The notes: generated from the sequence alone by a model not told the origin. DNA of 64,000 bases from an uncultured Candidatus Saccharibacteria bacterium (GCA_964411375.1 CAYPKR010000003.1:7237-71236), one strand, 5' to 3'. Counted from the first letter of the stretch, positions 1,532 to 60,789 are shown. Made by a program: numbers and translations.

Positions 1532-2884
1532 ATGGTATACCTGTCTTCAATGGCTGATTGGAAAACTTTCTTCAAGAACAAAAAAATTACCGTGATGGGC
1601 GCCGGGCTTCTTGGCGGTATTGGCGATATTCAATTCCTCGTGGAACAAGGGGCTGATTTGATCGTCACCGATCTTCAATCGGAAGAAGCGCTCAAAACAT
1701 CAATTGATCGCCTCAAAGATTTTCCGAATGTGCGATTTACGCTCGGAAAACACGAGCTTGCTGATTTCAAAGATCGCGATCTTGTTATCAAATCGCCTAC
1801 CACACCGCTCGATTCTCCGTTTACTGCGGAAGCAAGAAAAAATCATATTCCAGTTACGATGTGGGCGGCATTGTTTGCAAGGTTCGCACAGGAAGCCGGC
1901 GTGCCGATTGTAGGTGTTACTGGAACGCGTGGCAAAACAACTACGACTGCATGTATTGTTTCCATTGTTGAGGCGTCAGGCAAAAAAGTAATTACGGGGG
2001 GCAATGTTCAAAATATATCTATACTTTCACAGCTTCCTACACTTACTCGCGACTCAATCGCTGTCCTCGAGCTCGATTCGTGGAAACTCCAAGGATTTGC
2101 GGAAGAAAAAATCAGCCCACATATCGCCGTCTTCACTACCTTTTATCCCGATCATCTCAACTATTATCACGGCGATCTCGATCAATATCTTGCTGACAAA
2201 GCAAATATTTTTTTGAATCAGACGCCAGAAGACACGCTCGTTGTCGGGGAACAGGTTGCCGAACTTCTCCAGAAAAAATATGGAAAGAAAATCAAATCAC
2301 ATGTGGTAATCACAAAGACAAACGCAGTTCCAAAATCATGGAAACTCGGGATTCCAGGTGAGCATAATCGCTATAACGCAGCATGCGCAGCCGCAGCTGC
2401 TCGCGCACTTGGTATTGATGATGAAATTATTAAAGGCGCAGTCGAATCATTCAAAGGTGTTTCAGGACGGCTTGAATTTGTACGTGAACTTCGCGGCGTC
2501 AAAATTTATAACGACACAACTGCCACGACACCTGAAGCAACACTTGCGGCCCTCGAAGCAGTTGGAAATTCAGATACAAAAAATATCATCCTCATTATGG
2601 GCGGCGCCGACAAAGGACTCGATATGTCCATACTTCTCCAAGAAGTACAAGAAAAATGCAAAGCAGTCGTTTTGCTTCAGGGATCGGGAACCGAAAAAAT
2701 CGCTCCGGCATTTCCAGATGCTCCCGCGTTTGATTCACTACAATCGGCAATCGAGCAGGCTCAAAAATTTGCAAAAGAAGGGGATATCATTTTGTTTTCT
2801 CCCGCCTTCGCTTCGTTTGGTATGTTTAAAAATGAATACGATCGAGGAGATCAATTCATGGCACTCATACAAAATTTACAATAG
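1532..2884 (+). CDS. murD: UDP-N-acetylmuramoyl-L-alanine--D-glutamate ligase
   Basis: ITVMGAGLLGG Rossmann N-term, GVTGTRGKTTTT P-loop of Mur ligases, PGEHNRYNAACAAAA motif; ATG at 1532 chosen over upstream TTG at 1496 that overlaps the terminator. Confidence 0.8.
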   Translation: MVYLSSMADWKTFFKNKKITVMGAGLLGGIGDIQFLVEQGADLIVTDLQSEEALKTSIDRLKDFPNVRFTLGKHELADFKDRDLVIKSPTTPLDSPFTAEARKNHIPVTMWAALFARFAQEAGVPIVGVTGTRGKTTTTACIVSIVEASGKKVITGGNVQNISILSQLPTLTRDSIAVLELDSWKLQGFAEEKISPHIAVFTTFYPDHLNYYHGDLDQYLADKANIFLNQTPEDTLVVGEQVAELLQKKYGKKIKSHVVITKTNAVPKSWKLGIPGEHNRYNAACAAAAARALGIDDEIIKGAVESFKGVSGRLEFVRELRGVKIYNDTTATTPEATLAALEAVGNSDTKNIILIMGGADKGLDMSILLQEVQEKCKAVVLLQGSGTEKIAPAFPDAPAFDSLQSAIEQAQKFAKEGDIILFSPAFASFGMFKNEYDRGDQFMALIQNLQ

Positions 2885-2888
2885 GAAA

Positions 2889-2907
2889 GGGGGCGCTAGG
2901 CGCCCCC
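2889..2907 (+). terminator. GC hairpin gggggcgc-tag-gcgccccc directly after murD stop (no U-tract)
   Basis: perfect 8-bp G/C stem seen in sequence; lacks T-run so intrinsic-terminator function is uncertain. Confidence 0.35.
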
Positions 2908-2908
2908 T

Positions 2909-3228
2909 CGACCGTCGATTGGATTGTGTGTGGTTCCGCCCACGATTTGAAGTACGGGTCGGGAAGACCGAGGTACAACTGGTTTTCGACGAGGAACCTC
3001 TTCTTCTCGTGCGGCAGCAAAGCCACTTGCAACAACGCTATATGGACAGAAGCCCGGCATACCTCTTCCTGCACAATCGCAAGGCTCGTTTCTGTGAACA
3101 TAACAAGAGGCACCTTGATCGCCGTCCGGCATCCTTTCAGTCATGAGATCCTCACATTGTGTACTCGACTCATGGCAACGTATCACACTCTCCCAAAGTT
3201 TCAACCTTAGTGCTAGGATTGGAACCAC
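2909..3228. other. GC-rich (about 53%) 320-bp non-coding gap between murD and murC; candidate structured RNA or regulatory leader of unknown class
   Basis: no convincing ORF (only short overlapping six-frame ORFs), GC clearly above typical intergenic AT-richness in this window, several local hairpins; class not identified. Confidence 0.3.
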
Positions 3229-4503
3229 ATGGAAAAAATTCACCTAATCGGAATCGGCGGCATCGGTATGAGTGCGCTCGCACAGCTCTATGCCAAAGAG
3301 GGAAAGTTGGTTACGGGGTCTGATCGTGATCCGTCTCCAGCGGTACATGACCTCCTTCTCAAAAAAGGAATACAAGTATATGTCGGTCACCGCGCGGAGA
3401 ATGTCCCCGAGAATGCTAATCTCGTCATTTATTCTGACGCTGTTCCTGAAGATAATCCGGAGCGTGCGCGTGCGCGGGAACTCGGTATTTTGGAACAAAT
3501 GTATTTTGAAGCGCTCGGAGATGTTACCAAGGGTAGAAAGACAATCGCGATTGCGGGAACGCACGGAAAAACAACAACAACTGGAATGCTTACTAAAATC
3601 TTGATTGATGCAGGAGCAAATCCGACTGCGATTGTCGGTTCCATCGTCAAAGATTTTGAATCAAACTTCGTCGCCGGCTCGCCCGATCTTTTTGTTGTCG
3701 AAGCATGCGAATGGCGCGGGCACTTTTTGAATCTGTCACCATTTATTTTAGTTGTTACGAATATCGAATGGGATCACACGGATTTTTATCCAAATCTTCA
3801 GGCAGTCCAAAAAACATTTCGAGAGCTCATGGAACGAGTTCCAAAAGACGGTGCGATTGTGACTGACATGACTCATCAAAATATCGCGCCACTTCTTGTT
3901 GGACTTTCTTGTCGTGTGATTGATTACAAAACACTCACGGAAATCAAGACACCGCTTCTTGGTGAGTTTAATCAAGATAATGCACGTGCTGCGGCAGGAG
4001 GAGTGAACGCATTTTTGCCTGAAACCCAACTACGTGACATCAACACATCTCTCAAAAATTTTCACGGCACATGGCGACGTTTTGAATATAAAGGAAAAAC
4101 AGAAAACGGCGCCGAAGTGTGGGACGACTACGCACATCACCCAACTGCAGTTGCGGTAACACTGAAGGCCGCGCGGGAAAAATTTCCCGATACCAAAATC
4201 ACTGTCGCATTCCATCCACACTTGTACTCGAGAACGAAAGACTTATTGCCTGAATTCACCAATGCATTTACGGATGCCGATCATATTATCATTGCGCCGA
4301 TCTATGCCGCGCGTGAGGTTTCGGACGGTACAATCTCAAACCACATTCTCGCCGAAGCAATTGCTAAAACAGGGAAGGACGTCGTCGCGTTCGATTCGTT
4401 TGATTCAATTGAAGAAAAACTACGCACGCTTCCCGAGGGAAGCCTCATCATTACCATGGGCGCAGGAGATATCTATAAAGTCGGGGAGAGGTTACTTGGC
4501 TGA
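3229..4503 (+). CDS. murC: UDP-N-acetylmuramate--L-alanine ligase
   Basis: IHLIGIGGIGMSALA N-terminus, AIAGTHGKTTTTGM P-loop, length 424 aa. Confidence 0.85.
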   Translation: MEKIHLIGIGGIGMSALAQLYAKEGKLVTGSDRDPSPAVHDLLLKKGIQVYVGHRAENVPENANLVIYSDAVPEDNPERARARELGILEQMYFEALGDVTKGRKTIAIAGTHGKTTTTGMLTKILIDAGANPTAIVGSIVKDFESNFVAGSPDLFVVEACEWRGHFLNLSPFILVVTNIEWDHTDFYPNLQAVQKTFRELMERVPKDGAIVTDMTHQNIAPLLVGLSCRVIDYKTLTEIKTPLLGEFNQDNARAAAGGVNAFLPETQLRDINTSLKNFHGTWRRFEYKGKTENGAEVWDDYAHHPTAVAVTLKAAREKFPDTKITVAFHPHLYSRTKDLLPEFTNAFTDADHIIIAPIYAAREVSDGTISNHILAEAIAKTGKDVVAFDSFDSIEEKLRTLPEGSLIITMGAGDIYKVGERLLG

Positions 4504-49443: not shown

Positions 49444-50472
49444 ATGGAGTTTTTAGAACAAGTGTCTCTTGCAAATAAAACAACGCTCCACCTTGGCGGA
49501 GCGGCTTTGTTTTTTGTAGAAGTTTCAAGTATTGAAGAGTTACGAGAAGCAATCAAAAAAGCAAAAAATGGCGGACTTCGATTTAGAGTAATCGGAGGTG
49601 GATCAAATATTCTCGTTCCAGATGAGGGTTTCGATGGGCTCATCATCAAAAACTCGATACCAGGCATCCAATATGAGGAGATGGGGGAGAAAATACATGC
49701 AACGGTTGGTGCAGGAGAGGTGTGGGATCAATTTGTCGAAGACACCACTATGCGTGGATTCTATGGACTTGAAAACCTTTCAGGAATCCCGGGAACAGTT
49801 GGCGGAACGCCTATTCAAAATGTCGGTGCGTACGGAGTCGAAGTTGCCAATCTAATTGAATGGGTTGAAGTATATGATGCAAATACTGATTCAGTGCGTA
49901 AAATGTCGAATGACAAGTGTGCCTTTGGATATCGCGACAGTATTTTTAAAGGGCACGAAGAAGGAAAAGGTTTGTGCGTGACACGAGTACAATTTGTTCT
50001 TAGTAAAAATAAAATATTGTCACTTGAATACAAAGATATTCAAGCGGCACTTCAAGAGCAGGGAATTATCGATCCAACACTCAAGGATATTCGAAAAATA
50101 ATTCTTGCTATTCGAAGCAGAAAATTTCCTAATCTCAAGGAATTCGGCACCGCAGGATCATTCTTCAAAAATCCATTTATTACTAAGGAACAACTCTCTC
50201 TGGTGCAGGAATTCTATCCAGATATTCCAACGTACCCAGGACCCGATTCTCTCATAAAAATACCGATTGCGTATGTGCTTGAGCGCTTACCTGAAGGGTA
50301 TAAAGGAAAACGATTTGGGAATGTTGGTCTCTATAAAAATCATTCGCTGGTTGTTATTAACTATGGAGATGCAACCGGAGATGAAACACTTTCATTCGCA
50401 CAAAAAATAATTAGTGAAGTGAAAGAAAAAATTCAAATTGAAATGGAAATGGAAGTACAAATACTAAAATAA
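49444..50472 (+). CDS. murB: UDP-N-acetylenolpyruvoylglucosamine reductase
   Basis: FAD-binding NTLHLGGAA...VIGGGSNIL motifs, C-terminal MurB domain; ATG 49444 chosen (upstream part of six-frame ORF is non-homologous). Confidence 0.8.
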   Translation: MEFLEQVSLANKTTLHLGGAALFFVEVSSIEELREAIKKAKNGGLRFRVIGGGSNILVPDEGFDGLIIKNSIPGIQYEEMGEKIHATVGAGEVWDQFVEDTTMRGFYGLENLSGIPGTVGGTPIQNVGAYGVEVANLIEWVEVYDANTDSVRKMSNDKCAFGYRDSIFKGHEEGKGLCVTRVQFVLSKNKILSLEYKDIQAALQEQGIIDPTLKDIRKIILAIRSRKFPNLKEFGTAGSFFKNPFITKEQLSLVQEFYPDIPTYPGPDSLIKIPIAYVLERLPEGYKGKRFGNVGLYKNHSLVVINYGDATGDETLSFAQKIISEVKEKIQIEMEMEVQILK

Positions 50473-50665
50473 AAATAAAAAAATATTTTTCAAAAATAAA
50501 AAAATAAAAAGTTATCCACATATATTTTTAAAAATGATTGTATATACATCATTCATTCGCAATAATAGTGATACAGCGTTAGTCATCTTGCATAAAAAAT
50601 ATTTCGCAAAAATATTTGGTCGAAGATGAAACTACACGCCCATACTAATTAAAACAAAATCTATC

Positions 50666-50728
50666 ATGGCAAAGAAAAAGAAGGCTGCAAAGAAGACCAA
50701 GAAGAAGGCTTCGAAGAAGAAGCGATAA
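50666..50728 (+). CDS. putative micro-ORF encoding 20-aa Lys-rich peptide MAKKKKAAKKTKKKASKKKR
   Basis: ATG...TAA seen in sequence; preceded by about 190 bp of >75% AT promoter-like DNA; stop codon 22 nt upstream of a strong intrinsic terminator; too short for ORF track. Confidence 0.3.
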   Translation: MAKKKKAAKKTKKKASKKKR

Positions 50729-50750
50729 TCTCTCTATCGCATCTCCCACA

Positions 50751-50786
50751 ACAAGGGCTCCCACTGGAGCCCTTGTTTCTTTTTTC
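50751..50786 (+). terminator. strong rho-independent terminator
   Basis: acaagggctcc-cact-ggagcccttgt followed by ttcttttttc. Confidence 0.85.
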
Positions 50787-50909
50787 ATAACTAATATAAA
50801 AAAGCCATCTACTTTGTTGCGGGTCTCGAAAAAATCCTTCGCCGTATTGTCATACGTCTACGGATTTTTTCTCCCTGCGCCTCGTATCTGATCTTTTTAT
50901 ATTAGTTAT
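50787..50909. repeat. nested palindromic element upstream of secA: outer 16-bp perfect IR (ataactaatataaaaa / tttttatattagttat) enclosing inner 10-bp IR (gaaaaaatcc / ggattttttc)
   Basis: seen in sequence; architecture resembles element at 49053-49173 but sequences unrelated. Confidence 0.6.
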
Positions 50910-50955
50910 GAATACTCTCGAATAGCTCCTGTTTTTGTGTTATCCTGCGGTACGT

Positions 50956-53487
50956 ATGTCATTTCTAAAGTCACTATTAGGGGGCGACGAAAACGGCAAG
51001 GCGCTTAGGAAAATGGCGCCTATTGTGGCTGAGATAAATGCTTTTGAGGCTAAAATCCAACCCCTAACAGATGAGGAGCTCAAAGGAAAAACTGCTGAAT
51101 TTAGGGCGCGTCTCGAGAAGGGCGAAACCCTCGATCAGATCCTTCCCGAAGCCTTTGCAGTCGTTCGCGAGGCTTCTCGTCGCGTATCGGGTCAGCGCCA
51201 TTACGATGTTCAGCTCATGGGCGGTCTCGCTCTCCATCAAGGCAATATTTCTGAAATGCGCACTGGAGAAGGAAAGACCTTGGTCGCAACGCTTCCTGCA
51301 TATTTGAATGCACTGACGGGGAAGGGAGTGCATGTCGTCACCGTCAACGATTACCTCTCTCGCCGCGACGGCGTATGGATGGGGCAAGTATATTCGGCGC
51401 TCGGTCTTTCCCTTGGCGTTATCACAAGTGACGCATCATATATATATGATGGTTCGCACAAAGAAGTTGAAGTGGAGGATACAGAACGCGATGAGCTCGG
51501 TTCGTTCAAAGTTTTTTACGATTTTCTCCGTCCATCAACGCGCCAAGATTCATACAATGCCGACATTACGTACGGTACCTCGAATGAATTTGGATTTGAT
51601 TATCTTCGCGACAATATTGCGTATGAAAAACGTGATCTTCGTCAACGCGGATTCCACTATGCAATCGTTGACGAAGTCGACTCGATTTTGATCGACGAAG
51701 CGCGCACCCCGCTCATCATTTCGGCTCCCGCGGCACAATCTGAATCTCTCTACGCAACGTTTGCAAAAATTGCCGCAACGTTAAACGTCGGCGAGGATTT
51801 TGAACTTGAAGAAAAGCATCGACAGATTTTGATGAAAGATTCTGGTATCGAAAAAGCAGAAAAGATGCTCGGCATGGGAAATATTTATACTGACGGCGGT
51901 ATCAAATATGTGCATCACCTCGAAACTGCTGTTCGTGCGAAGGCACTCTTTAACAAAGACAAAGAATACGTCGTGAAGGACGGACAGATCGTCATTGTCG
52001 ATGAATTCACCGGTCGTCTTCAGCCAGGACGACGTTGGTCAGAGGGGCTCCATCAAGCAGTCGAAGCAAAGGAAGGCGTGCCGGTACAAAACGAAACACG
52101 TACATTCGCGTCGGTGACATTCCAAAATTATTTCCGCATGTATGCGAAACTCTCTGGAATGACGGGAACTGCCGTAACTTCCGCCGAAGAATTCCGTACG
52201 GTCTACAATCTCGATACGATAATCATTCCAACCAACAAGCCGATCGCGCGCAAAGACAATGATGATCTTATTTTCCGAACCGAAAAAGGAAAGTTCACCG
52301 CAATCGCCAGAAAGGTAAAAGAACTCACCGAAAAGGGAACGCCGGTTCTCATCGGTACGGTTTCGATTGAGAAAAACGAACTTCTGGCAGAATATCTCTC
52401 AAAGGAAGGTGTAGCGCATGAAATGTTGAATGCAAAAAATCACGAGCGTGAAGGAGAAATCATTGCACAGGCAGGTCATCAAAAGCGCGTAACGATTGCA
52501 ACCAACATGGCGGGTCGCGGCGTCGATATTAAACTTGGAGGAAATCCCGCAACGCTTGAACAATATGACGCAGTCAAAAACCTTGGCGGACTCTTTGTCC
52601 TCGGTACCGAGCGCCACGAAGCACGTCGCATCGACAACCAGCTTCGTGGTCGTGCCGGACGTCAGGGCGATCCGGGTGAGACGCAATTTTTCGTCTCTCT
52701 CGAAGACTCTCTTATGCGTGTCTTTGCATCGGACACAATAAAAGGAATGATGGAGCGTTTGAACATTCCGGAAGACGAGCCAATTCAAAACAAGCTCATC
52801 ACGCGTTCGCTTGAATCTGCACAAACCAAGATCGAAGGATTCCATTTCGATTCTCGTAAACAAGTGCTCGCATACGACAATGTGCTAAACACCCAGCGCC
52901 ACTCGCTCTACGCAACTCGCTCGAGAATACTTCTTGGCGAACAATCCGACATTGAAGAATATCTAAATGAACAGGTTGCGGGCGATGCCGAAGCAATGAA
53001 AATCATTGGATCAAAGAAAGCAGAGCTTGGAGAAGAAGCGTTTATTGAAAGTTTCCGCCGACTCGCACTCCAAACGATCGACATGTTCTGGATGGATCAT
53101 TTGGAAGCGATGGACTATCTTCGCTCGAGCGTCAATCTTCGCGCCTATGGTCAGCGCGATCCGCTTGTTGAATATCGCAAAGAAGGTCTCCTGCAGTTTC
53201 GTCAGCTTGAGGAATCAATTAGTGCAAATCTCATTCGTCTCCTTCCATCAATCGGTGGAAGCGCAATAGTTACAGAAGAAAAGAAGATGCAGAACGTACA
53301 GAAGAGCGCAGTACTTCTTGGCGGCAGTCAGAGTGCATCAAATGCAAAGAGTGTGAACGGGGGAGTGAAGTCTTCTAAAATTGGCCGCAATGACATGGTC
53401 ACGATCACGGATGGTACTAAGACCGAAACAATGAAATACAAAAAAGCGGAACCCTTGATTGAAAGCGGCGTTTGGAAGATTGTATAA
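50956..53487 (+). CDS. secA: preprotein translocase ATPase SecA
   Basis: DEAD-like motor motifs (MRTGEGKTLVATLPAYLNAL, VDEVDSILIDEARTPLIIS, MAGRGVDIKLGG); ATG 50956 (MSFLKSLLGG) preferred over TTG 50935. Confidence 0.9.
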   Translation: MSFLKSLLGGDENGKALRKMAPIVAEINAFEAKIQPLTDEELKGKTAEFRARLEKGETLDQILPEAFAVVREASRRVSGQRHYDVQLMGGLALHQGNISEMRTGEGKTLVATLPAYLNALTGKGVHVVTVNDYLSRRDGVWMGQVYSALGLSLGVITSDASYIYDGSHKEVEVEDTERDELGSFKVFYDFLRPSTRQDSYNADITYGTSNEFGFDYLRDNIAYEKRDLRQRGFHYAIVDEVDSILIDEARTPLIISAPAAQSESLYATFAKIAATLNVGEDFELEEKHRQILMKDSGIEKAEKMLGMGNIYTDGGIKYVHHLETAVRAKALFNKDKEYVVKDGQIVIVDEFTGRLQPGRRWSEGLHQAVEAKEGVPVQNETRTFASVTFQNYFRMYAKLSGMTGTAVTSAEEFRTVYNLDTIIIPTNKPIARKDNDDLIFRTEKGKFTAIARKVKELTEKGTPVLIGTVSIEKNELLAEYLSKEGVAHEMLNAKNHEREGEIIAQAGHQKRVTIATNMAGRGVDIKLGGNPATLEQYDAVKNLGGLFVLGTERHEARRIDNQLRGRAGRQGDPGETQFFVSLEDSLMRVFASDTIKGMMERLNIPEDEPIQNKLITRSLESAQTKIEGFHFDSRKQVLAYDNVLNTQRHSLYATRSRILLGEQSDIEEYLNEQVAGDAEAMKIIGSKKAELGEEAFIESFRRLALQTIDMFWMDHLEAMDYLRSSVNLRAYGQRDPLVEYRKEGLLQFRQLEESISANLIRLLPSIGGSAIVTEEKKMQNVQKSAVLLGGSQSASNAKSVNGGVKSSKIGRNDMVTITDGTKTETMKYKKAEPLIESGVWKIV

Positions 53488-58546: not shown

Positions 58547-58874
58547 TCTTATTTTAAAGCAAATAATGGGTACAAAAAGATTCCGTATCGCGGAGTCTTT
58601 TTTCTTGCATTAGGAATATTTGGGCTAGAAAGGAGGTAAATAAATATTTAGTCGGTGTTAGTAATCGAGGTAACCTATCCTCAGGAGGACAGAGGTTTGA
58701 TTCGAATGGATTCGTCGGATCATCGGAAAGTAAGGAATAGCGACTAGATGGGTGAGTCACTTCAAATTTCTTAAGATCTATCTTGTAGATAGAGGCGGTT
58801 GTTGCTGGAATCAGTCACAGATATTTGGAAGTAAGAATATCTATAATACGTTTTAAAATAAGATTATCTCGTTT
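58535..58874. repeat. 24-bp perfect inverted repeats (58535-58558 aaaacgagataatcttattttaaa / 58851-58874) flanking a 292-bp segment; candidate invertible promoter switch or MITE-like element
   Basis: IRs seen directly; left IR overlaps the stop codon of the upstream gene; consensus TATAAT at 58841-58846 oriented toward downstream genes lies just inside the right IR. Confidence 0.6.
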
Positions 58875-59102
58875 TGCCGAGATATATTTTTAAGCTAAAT
58901 AATTTTAAATAACCTATAACCGCCTTCAAATAATTTTTTGAGTCAATGCGAGTAAAATACCGTGGAAGCGATCCAATTGAGTCAAAAATCGATCTCAATA
59001 GGGAAATAAAGGCTAGATTTTGCTATTTTGAGGGGTTTTAGATCGGAAAGTTTCATTATTTCTATCCAAAATATTCTTTCTATCTTGATATATAGCCATC
59101 TT

Positions 59103-59868
59103 TTTTATTTTAAGAAAAAATAACCTCAAAAAAGATTCGTTGGAAGCTAAAAAAGTAACGAAAAAATCGAACCATCCGAGATTTTAGATTTGTTGAAAAA
59201 CCTAGTGATTCCGGATATCAAAGAAAGTCGATTTTATCCACAGAAATAGTTAGGTCGATGTCGATTTTATCTTGTAAAATATAAGTAATTCGTTCAAACG
59301 GATTAGCCATGAGCACTGTTCTTTTATTCGAAAATAGGGAATACATCGCATCTCGCGATGCAGCGCTCGATTCCGGGTATTCGCTTGATTACATTTCAAA
59401 ACTTTGTCGTTCAAAAAAATTGAACGCAAAGTTGATCGGAAAAAGTTGGTTTGTTGAAAAAGATTCGCTCGAACTTTTTCTTCAATTTTATTTTAAGAAA
59501 AAATAACCTCAAAAAAGATTCGTTGGAAGCTAAAAAAGTAACGAAAAAATCGAACCATCCGAGATTTTAGATTTGTTGAAAAACCTAGTGATTCCGGATA
59601 TCAAAGAAAGTCGATTTTATCCACAGAAATAGTTAGGTCGATGTCGATTTTATCTTGTAAAATATAAGTAATTCGTTCAAACGGATTAGCCATGAGCACT
59701 GTTCTTTTATTCGAAAATAGGGAATACATCGCATCTCGCGATGCAGCGCTCGATTCCGGGTATTCGCTTGATTACATTTCAAAACTTTGTCGTTCAAAAA
59801 AATTGAACGCAAAGTTGATCGGAAAAAGTTGGTTTGTTGAAAAAGATTCGCTCGAACTTTTTCTTCAA
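59103..59868. repeat. perfect tandem duplication, 2 x 383 bp (59103-59485 and 59486-59868)
   Basis: units identical on inspection; each contains promoter-like region, direct repeats GTCGATTTTATC x2, and first 59 codons of the HTH_17 gene. Confidence 0.9.
59309..59506 (+). pseudogene. truncated duplicate (65 aa) of N-terminal HTH_17 domain created by the 383-bp tandem duplication
   Basis: first 59 aa identical to gene 59692-60789, then 6 aa read into next repeat unit and stop. Confidence 0.5.
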
Positions 59869-60789
59869 TCACAAGAAAGAATCAAAATTGAAAATCAGAA
59901 GCGCCTTTCGCGTGAACGCCGCTCTGATTACCGCACCATTCGACTTCAGGAGAGTGTGGTCAAACTTCGAGAGAACATTTCAGAAACTGCATCGAATTCT
60001 GCCAAGGGAATTTTTTCACGTTTCCCTGCAATCGCCTCTACCCTCACTCTCGCAGTACTTCTCTATGCAGTCGTAAGCGGTACTATATCGATTTCGAACA
60101 TTTCAAATCGTGCACAGTCGGCACTTGCTGATGCGGCAAATACCATTGGTTTTATCGGTGATCTTGCGAGTCAAAATCAAACTGCATGGAATGCATTTAA
60201 TGCAAATATGCAGACTGCAATGATCGGTGTTTCAGAAGCGACAACTGATTTGCAAAAAAATATTGGATTTTTTGTAAACGAGATGAATCACGAGACAATG
60301 GTTAGTCACCGAGCAATTGGAGCATCAGCAAATACTGCAATCAGTGCGCTTACTACTACGGGTAAAAATATCGGATCGAACATCTACGCAGTGTTGCTTA
60401 CTCTCCATGACACTGCAATCGTATACGTGAATGGGCTCTGGGGTCACATGGCATTTGTCGCACCACAATCTCGAGAAATTTCTGAAGCACCAAAATCGAA
60501 TACGAACACAAATACAAACACGCCGACAACTGAAGATTCTGGCTCGCCGCAAGGAATGGTTGTGGTCCCATCGAACGGAACACCGAGTGCAGATGCCGAA
60601 CAAATTTCAAGAATTCAAAAGACGTTCTCTGACAAAGTTTCTGTGATACCGGCAGAAGACGGAGAAAGCGGAATTATTAGACCTGAATTTAAAGACACGA
60701 AAGGCAGTGATTATGTCTACGTGCTCGTTCCTGTTGGCGGCGGCGAACAAAATTCAGGAAGCGTAAATACTGGCGGTACGAAGCCATAA
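59692..60789 (+). CDS. membrane-anchored protein with N-terminal HTH_17 DNA-binding domain, one TM helix and about 230-aa extracytoplasmic C-terminal domain
   Basis: EYIASRDAALDSGYSLDYISKLCRSKKLNAKLIGKSWFVEKDSLELFL (HTH_17-like); TM FPAIASTLTLAVLLYAVVSG; paralogous N-domain to 57713-58546. Confidence 0.65.
   Translation: MSTVLLFENREYIASRDAALDSGYSLDYISKLCRSKKLNAKLIGKSWFVEKDSLELFLQSQERIKIENQKRLSRERRSDYRTIRLQESVVKLRENISETASNSAKGIFSRFPAIASTLTLAVLLYAVVSGTISISNISNRAQSALADAANTIGFIGDLASQNQTAWNAFNANMQTAMIGVSEATTDLQKNIGFFVNEMNHETMVSHRAIGASANTAISALTTTGKNIGSNIYAVLLTLHDTAIVYVNGLWGHMAFVAPQSREISEAPKSNTNTNTNTPTTEDSGSPQGMVVVPSNGTPSADAEQISRIQKTFSDKVSVIPAEDGESGIIRPEFKDTKGSDYVYVLVPVGGGEQNSGSVNTGGTKP

Follow-up and report, generated by a model that had tools for sequence, protein, structure and literature searches.

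What is encoded in the spacer between murB and secA on a 64,000-nucleotide (nt) stretch of DNA from an uncultured Candidatus Saccharibacteria bacterium (GCA_964411375.1 CAYPKR010000003.1:7237-71236; the whole stretch is hereafter called the window)? An initial annotation, made from the sequence alone, had pointed to a 20-codon lysine-rich micro-open reading frame (micro-ORF) followed by a strong terminator at this position. The ORF itself holds, running from ATG to TAA at 50666-50728 on the plus strand with the 20-amino-acid (aa) translation MAKKKKAAKKTKKKASKKKR, whereas the 13 lysines then counted are in fact 12 Lys and one Arg, i.e., 13 basic residues conferring a net charge of about +13 over 20 residues. 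With 65% K+R, the micro-ORF is an extreme outlier among the 421 ATG-initiated ORFs of 15-40 aa in the six frames of the window, where the runner-up reaches 40%. We are highly confident that the gene is real and conserved, that it is translated and that it has a transcript of its own. Together with its surroundings it has the appearance of a standalone monocistronic cassette, comprised of a DnaA-box-identical element, an UP-like tract, a sigma-70-type promoter, a leader, the ORF and a terminator, with the following features:

50473..50511, plus strand: A/T-rich tract between the murB stop codon and the conserved box, upstream part of the putative promoter (85% A+T over 50473-50560).
50512..50520, plus strand: DnaA-box-identical 9-mer, TTATCCACA, at about -61 to -53 relative to the predicted transcription start.
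50521..50537, plus strand: A/T-tract spacer, TATATTTTTAAAAATGA, a putative UP element; T/A tracts lie at the same place in orthologues.
50538..50543, plus strand: -35-like hexamer, TTGTAT; TTGTNN is found at fixed spacing in 19 cassettes.
50561..50566, plus strand: -10 hexamer, AATAAT, 17 nt past the -35; GATAAT or GATACT in orthologues.
50572..50665, plus strand: predicted 5' leader (about 93 nt) lacking a Shine-Dalgarno (SD) sequence; fold of -15.5 kcal/mol, z = -2.96.
50576..50639, plus strand: 5'-proximal stem-loop of the leader, from RNA folding.
50618..50623, plus strand: GGTCGA (GGTCGR) hexamer, conserved, 48 nt before the ATG.
50666..50728, plus strand: micro-ORF including the TAA stop codon; MAKKKKAAKKTKKKASKKKR, 20 aa, 12 K + 1 R.
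50750..50786, plus strand: intrinsic terminator, with a stem-loop at 50750-50777 (12 bp, 7 G-C, 4-nt loop) and then the T-tract TCTTTTTTC.

The upstream neighbor, murB (FAD_binding_4 and MurB_C), ends at 50472 with its stop codon at 50470-50472, and the downstream neighbor, secA, starts at 50956. In agreement with the earlier statement that DNA of more than 75% A+T precedes the ORF, the 193 nt from the murB stop codon to the ATG (50473-50665) are 77.2% A+T, with 85% in the first 88 nt (50473-50560) and 54% in the whole window.

The loci of relatives were gathered through SecA matches in one-genome-per-species and metagenome collections and then scanned for short basic ORFs. The best SecA matches, at 58-71% identity, came from Paceibacterota, Vogelbacteria, Wildermuthbacteria, Sungiibacteriota and metagenome-assembled genomes labeled 'Patescibacteria group'; judged by these SecA relatives, the window belongs to Patescibacteria. 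The initial annotation had proposed searching related genomes for lysine-rich ORFs between murB and secA and had named a lack of ORF conservation as the outcome that would undo its reading. The search recovered 29 further cassettes in Patescibacteria (Paceibacteria-type) loci, which with the window make 30, and the ORF was kept across all of them. With few exceptions, the further cassettes share the strand of secA and lie 80-1700 nt upstream of it. Across the 30 cassettes, the encoded peptides share the N-terminus M-A/P-(A/T)-K-K-(R/K)-K and a C-terminal K/R run, and their residues are limited to K, R, A, P, T, S, V and occasional G. Lengths span ninefold, from 13 aa (MAKKRKAAKKKKR) to 114 aa; the long members consist of in-frame tandem repeats (33 nt x 4.4 copies in locus L001 and 54 nt x 2.9 copies in L082), and the repeat units, all of basic composition, range from a pentamer to an 18-mer. 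The 20-aa window member has no internal repeat. On these sequence grounds, the cassettes would represent a previously unannotated family of Paceibacteria-type Patescibacteria, 13-114 residues in length, whose size appears to change via in-frame tandem repeats.

Evidence for translation was seen across frame, substitution and codon patterns. In the long members, the ATG frame alone is open and many stops interrupt the other two frames; the purine tract opens with an exactly conserved ATG-GCN/CCA, and the tandem-repeat periods (33 and 54 nt) are multiples of three. Within the 13-aa clade, codon differences amount to 3 synonymous against 0 non-synonymous and to 5-6 synonymous against 2 non-synonymous, both of the latter being K/R swaps, and ORF identity (0.81-1.0) exceeds that of the 45-nt flanks on each side. 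Additionally, the lysine codons of the window micro-ORF are biased towards AAG (AAG:AAA 11:1) compared with the long ORFs of the window (301:676; Fisher p = 2e-5), as are the pooled cassettes (303:150) relative to their background (1642:2538; p = 3e-29), with AAG preferred in 27 of the 29 cassettes against AAA-rich backgrounds (sign test p = 2e-6). Because iterated AAA cuts protein output and makes ribosomes slide, an effect that is far smaller for AAG (PMC4363877), this bias indicates selection for efficient in-frame translation and not for stalling. The missing SD sequence is no argument against translation, since SD-like cores precede 9 of 57 long window ORFs, near the 10% seen at random positions. 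The earlier idea of a tiny basic microprotein is thus upheld in so far as the ORF is conserved in frame, position and charge at 30 loci and carries codon-level signs of selection.

Two other potential reading frames were considered around the micro-ORF. A leucine-rich antisense ORF at 50645-50788 (47 aa) had no conserved counterpart in the orthologues and was therefore ruled out as a gene. In the 13-aa clade (L086 408-485, L091 ~1576-1653 and L104 1919-1999), an in-frame ATG lies 12-13 codons upstream, just past a second GGTCGA, and would lengthen the product to 25-26 aa; the respective extensions, MRSPILRVYRTT, MHRPFCGHSATI and MPQPNLRLRSCTK, are probably non-coding because their sequence is poorly conserved.

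The conserved DnaA-box, promoter and leader architecture is the most interesting part of the locus and had been overlooked in the initial annotation. It emerged when the upstream regions were anchored at a 9-mer that they have in common, and the promoter was assigned by phylogenetic footprinting. This 9-mer, TTATCCACA, is the DnaA-box consensus (PMC8203912), and it occurs exactly and in the same orientation 102-201 nt before the ATG in 21 of the 29 cassettes, or in 25 of the 29 when up to one mismatch is allowed; L084 adds TTGTCCACA. In the cassettes, the box is preceded by (A)G. Within 300 nt upstream of the micro-ORFs, boxes with up to one mismatch reach a density of 3.47/kb, compared with 0.19/kb elsewhere in the same loci, an 18-fold difference. 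An A/T-rich stretch precedes the box in most orthologous cassettes, and in 19 cassettes the gap from the box to TTGTNN is 17-18 nt (20 in one case). The promoter pattern in the orthologues is TTGTNN, a 16-17-nt spacer and then GATAAT, GATACT or AATAAT, which would set the transcription start of the window cassette at about 50572-50574, near 50573.

DnaA activates or represses transcription via TTATCCACA boxes (PMC8203912). As a single consensus box stands at a class-I-like position, centered at about -57, the arrangement suggests that DnaA modulates the cassette promoter. Like the DnaA-regulated promoters of Escherichia coli dnaA and nrdAB, Bacillus subtilis sda and Caulobacter gcrA/ftsZ (PMC8203912), the cassettes have a consensus box at a conserved promoter-proximal position; unlike them, they have one box at about -57, serve a microprotein gene and are known here from sequence alone. 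The literature yielded nothing tying DnaA boxes to Patescibacteria, nor any description of such microproteins.

The same box was observed in other arrangements. Near the cassette in two loci (L009 2573-2700 and L021 503-400, minus strand) there is a second type of DnaA-box promoter, consisting of TTATCCACA, 6-8 nt and TTGACA-N17-TATACT, which is predicted to drive transcripts of ~45-75 nt with no evident ORF that end at intrinsic terminators; these short transcripts may be DnaA-controlled small RNAs. Elsewhere in the window, a perfect 300-nt direct repeat (59103-59402 and 59486-59785, 383-nt spacing) shows the motif pair of the cassette, box plus GGTCGA, in a different arrangement: each copy contains TTATCCACA (at 59234 and 59617), GGTCGA 10 nt further on and then an ORF start, MSTVLLFENREYIASRD..., and the ORF of the second copy continues as a 365-aa ORF (59692-60789) with a weak HTH_17 match.

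The leaders of the orthologues are predicted to be 42-140 nt long, and all 18 that were folded open with a stem-loop at nt 4-7, with z <= -2 in 11 of the 18. A 5'-terminal hairpin is a classic mRNA stabilizer, and by analogy this one likely stabilizes the cassette mRNA. In the window, the ~26 nt directly preceding the AUG are rich in A/U and predicted to be unpaired. The GGTCGR motif is present in 24 of the 29 cassettes; in 22 of these it stands 35-66 nt ahead of the ATG, and its flanks are not conserved. Its interpretation as an SD sequence or as the -35 of a second promoter was rejected, as no start codon or -10 is found consistently at a fixed distance. Neither the window nor 17 orthologous loci gave a match at or above the gathering threshold to any Rfam 15 family, the lysine riboswitch and the ribosomal-protein leaders included; within 50400-51000, the strongest matches below threshold had <= 21.8 bits and E >= 0.39.

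At its downstream end the cassette is closed by an intrinsic terminator, a G+C-rich stem-loop directly followed by a U-tract at 50750-50786. As previously stated, the stem starts with the 22nd nt past the stop codon, leaving a gap of 21 nt. Terminator-like sites number 3 in 800 nt vs. 0.6 expected in shuffles. A terminator hairpin follows the stop codon in 28 of 29 cassettes according to a script and is visible by eye in L005 and L084, so that every cassette has a strong terminator of its own, and the distance from stop codon to terminator varies from 4 to 60 nt.

The placement of the cassette relative to secA also varies. L021 carries the entire cassette at the same place but in reverse orientation, between murB and an ATP-grasp gene, and it is inverted relative to secA in L105. 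In L009, L014 and L103, hpf (Ribosomal_S30AE) lies between cassette and secA, and in L013 (Wildermuthbacteria, 2313-3928) speD (S-adenosylmethionine decarboxylase) and speE (spermidine synthase) directly follow the cassette before secA; this adjacency of a polycation gene and polyamine synthesis genes is a single case. The secA spacers of the orthologues also seem to carry -10-like elements of their own. With a cassette that can be inverted and separated from secA, a variable register and codons that avoid stalling, the sequences argue that it is not a secA leader or attenuator. In the window, an extended -10-like element, TGTTATCCT, appears to stand only ~15 nt before the ATG of secA (50956), and a secA mRNA with a very short leader, or none at all (leaderless), is suggested by this short distance.

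Between the micro-ORF terminator and secA, the window also contains a nested palindrome (50784-50912). The outer pair of arms (50784-50802 and 50894-50912; 19 nt each) is 100% complementary, and the 19-mer has no further copy in the window; the inner pair (50828-50847 and 50852-50871; 20 nt each) is 85% complementary. Since the spacer measures only 90-150 nt in the orthologous loci, the palindrome looks like a lineage-specific insertion, similar in size to a miniature inverted-repeat transposable element.

The gene product was compared with known proteins. The long orthologues gave matches only below threshold, to histone-H1-like models and a compositional 'Mucin-like' model, with E-values of 4e-4 for Pfam HC2 and 1.5e-3 for NCBIfam hist_H1_lk_Burk among the long members; for the longest orthologue, the scores against the curated cut-offs were 20.9/40 bits (PF07382), 18.8/80 (NF038053) and 15.1/135 (NF038052). 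A phmmer search of the PDB returned 0 matches, an exact look-up of nine family peptides in a 15-billion-protein collection found none of them, and of the 2926 word candidates from a HMMER-based search with a 41-aa member none had E <= 0.01; low complexity defeats such homology tools. The systems compared were Chlamydia Hc2/Hc1 (PF07382, NF038052), the Burkholderia/Bordetella H1-like proteins (NF038053), Pseudomonas AlgP, which has been described as H1-like (PMC9239181), and the C-terminal PAKKA tail of mycobacterial HupB. Like the H1-like proteins, the family is K/R/A/P-rich and of low complexity, with no acidic or aromatic residues. Hc2 varies in length via lysine-rich repeats (PMC2848022), and the family likewise has Lys/Ala/Pro-rich tandem repeats whose number varies between relatives. 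Unlike Hc2 and AlgP, the window member has 20 aa and some orthologues have 13 aa, about ten times shorter, and unlike the H1-like proteins in general the family has a conserved MAKK(R/K)K N-terminus, belongs to a Patescibacteria lineage and is preceded by the DnaA-box promoter and leader.

The main rival explanation is that the product is a ribosomal or ribosome-associated microprotein filling rRNA grooves, as eL41, bTHX, bS22 or bL37 do, and that the leader is an autoregulatory rRNA mimic. In favor of this are the tiny size and extreme basicity of the peptide, the strong promoter, the terminator belonging to the gene and the conserved, structured leader; eL41 (~25 aa), bTHX, mycobacterial bS22 and bL37, and bL36 share its size class, its charge density and its organization as a stand-alone gene, highly expressed in their case and predicted to be so here, and hpf, encoding a ribosome hibernation factor, is the next gene in three deeper-branching loci. 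However, the comparison with small ribosomal protein families that the initial annotation had recommended gave no match to any Pfam or NCBIfam model (eL41 PF05162, bTHX, bS22, bL37, bL36) at E <= 10 for the window peptide and five orthologues, and no PDB sequence match was found. Structural ribosomal proteins keep their length and residues, whereas this family, close relatives included, varies between 13 and 114 aa, contains low-complexity repeats with proline and, being made of K/R/A/P/T only, has no conserved specific positions past the N-terminus. Because of this composition, the repeat-driven length variation and the lack of conserved specific residues, which recall the lysine-rich tails of histone H1 as well as Hc2 and AlgP, the H1-like reading is favored; the ribosomal one is considered unlikely, though to be taken seriously. 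Of the two kinds of microprotein put forward earlier, ribosomal or nucleoid, it is thus the nucleoid, H1-like kind that fits better, in terms of compositional resemblance only. An exported cationic peptide, cell-penetrating or antimicrobial and used by an episymbiont on its host, is very unlikely. The gene does neighbor secA, Patescibacteria are largely episymbionts and polylysine peptides cross or perturb membranes, but the product has no signal peptide and no hydrophobic or amphipathic residues, no transporter or processing genes adjoin the cassette, and the repeat-expanded 100-aa versions are unlike antimicrobial peptides.

The remaining alternatives treat the ORF as regulatory or incidental. 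A non-coding small RNA with an incidental purine-rich ORF would account for the short terminated transcript that is predicted, the conserved leader motif and the 5' hairpin, for the purine-rich sequence being open in several frames in the short members and for the tiny ORF-less transcripts predicted from the neighboring DnaA-box promoters of L009 and L021. It would not account for the exact ATG-GCN/CCA at the start of the purine tract, the frame 0 that alone is open in long members, repeat periods in multiples of three, the third-position bias towards AAG or changes that are synonymous or K/R only, and there is no Rfam family match, so that this explanation is highly improbable. Just as improbable is a chromosomal replication origin, for which the perfect DnaA box adjoining an 85% A/T tract and the one perfect and three 1-mismatch boxes within ~185 bp in L021 could be cited; in all other cassettes there is a single box, locked to the promoter at fixed spacing, and neither a GC-skew switch nor a change in gene orientation occurs at 50.5 kb, nor a dnaA gene in the window or the gathered loci. 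The regulatory upstream ORF acting on secA, already called speculative when it was raised, would be a leader-peptide or SecM-like attenuator in which ribosomes slowed at the Lys codons govern the terminator and read-through into secA. Like the hisL/trpL leaders, SecM-secA and RAPP-type arrest peptides (PMC12992588), the cassette has a short ORF followed by a terminator hairpin, on the same strand upstream of secA in the window and most loci. Unlike them, it has no fixed register, the stop-to-stem distance of 4-60 nt coming with no conserved antiterminator pairing; its orientation is reversed in L021 and L105, hpf or speD-speE intervenes before secA in other loci and L090 and L098 lack it upstream of secA, so linkage to secA is not obligate; orthologous secA genes appear to have their own -10-like elements; and AAG is used over stall-prone AAA in 27 of 29 cassettes (PMC4363877). 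The ninefold variation in ORF length and the lack of a SecM-type signal or arrest motif are also at odds with an attenuator, which is contradicted to the point of having almost no chance of being correct.

The account proposed here is that of a stand-alone, conserved gene for a polycationic, H1-tail-like microprotein that binds nucleic acid; taken as a whole, we lean modestly towards it. The product would bind nucleic acid without sequence specificity, acting through charge neutralization or compaction primarily on the nucleoid and secondarily on RNA or ribosomes. Judging from the strong promoter, the 5' hairpin and the AAG bias of its codons, the polycation is probably highly expressed, and DnaA at the single box near -57 would tune its transcription, coupling polycation supply to replication status. 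A more elaborate version, which we regard as quite unlikely in full, would make the product a minimal protamine- or polyamine-like polycation, down to 13 residues in length, whose synthesis is set by DnaA via the -57 box so that newly replicated DNA is neutralized or compacted in step with replication initiation, with GGUCGR as a feedback site sensing free polycation and the speD-speE adjacency in L013 reflecting a shared polycation economy.

Several points weigh against the proposed account. The loci are phylogenetically related, so that the cassette counts are not independent and overstate independence, and two close relatives (L090 and L098) have no cassette upstream of secA. TTGTAT fits TTGACA at only 3 of 6 positions, which is weak by the E. 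coli consensus and the reason that a generic promoter scan missed the promoter. There is one DnaA box per cassette in all but one cassette; DnaA reportedly often prefers paired sites, and a factor other than DnaA could read the box. The leaders share an architecture only (5' hairpin, motif and unpaired A/U stretch) and not a fold: MAFFT and RNAalifold applied to 13 leaders gave zero pairs and no common structure, a stem enclosing GGTCGR scored better than shuffles in only 3 of 24 sequences, and the motif is left unexplained. On the protein side, the window peptide has no Pfam or NCBIfam match at E <= 10, the H1-like resemblance of the longer members is compositional with every match below the curated cut-offs, and a peptide of 13-20 residues is far smaller than any characterized nucleoid protein.

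Two structured regions outside the cassettes were also recorded. In the cassette-less locus L098, the spacer between a tetratricopeptide repeat (TPR) gene and secA (2750-2990) has a G+C-rich structured segment with a terminator-like hairpin, gtcccgcctctggcgggctttgcgttttttt, at its end, which may be a different small transcript. In the window, a terminator-like hairpin (58575-58600) is followed by ~540 nt (58560-59100) that contain no sizeable ORF and have no Rfam match.

Bacterial H1-like polycations are already known; what appears to be new in the present family is the miniaturization to 13-20 residues and the conserved DnaA-box promoter and leader. Standard annotation misses the gene, which is below the length limits of gene callers, absent from the protein collection and of low complexity, and yet its cassette belongs to the most strongly conserved intergenic features near secA in a large class of uncultivated bacteria. 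The murB-secA spacer is accordingly to be read as a gene with its regulatory region and not as a secA leader. If its product is an abundant polycation, it would be a component so far missed in the chromatin and ribosome physiology of organisms whose cells and genomes are extremely small; if it is controlled by DnaA, it would be the first candidate member of a DnaA regulon in Patescibacteria.

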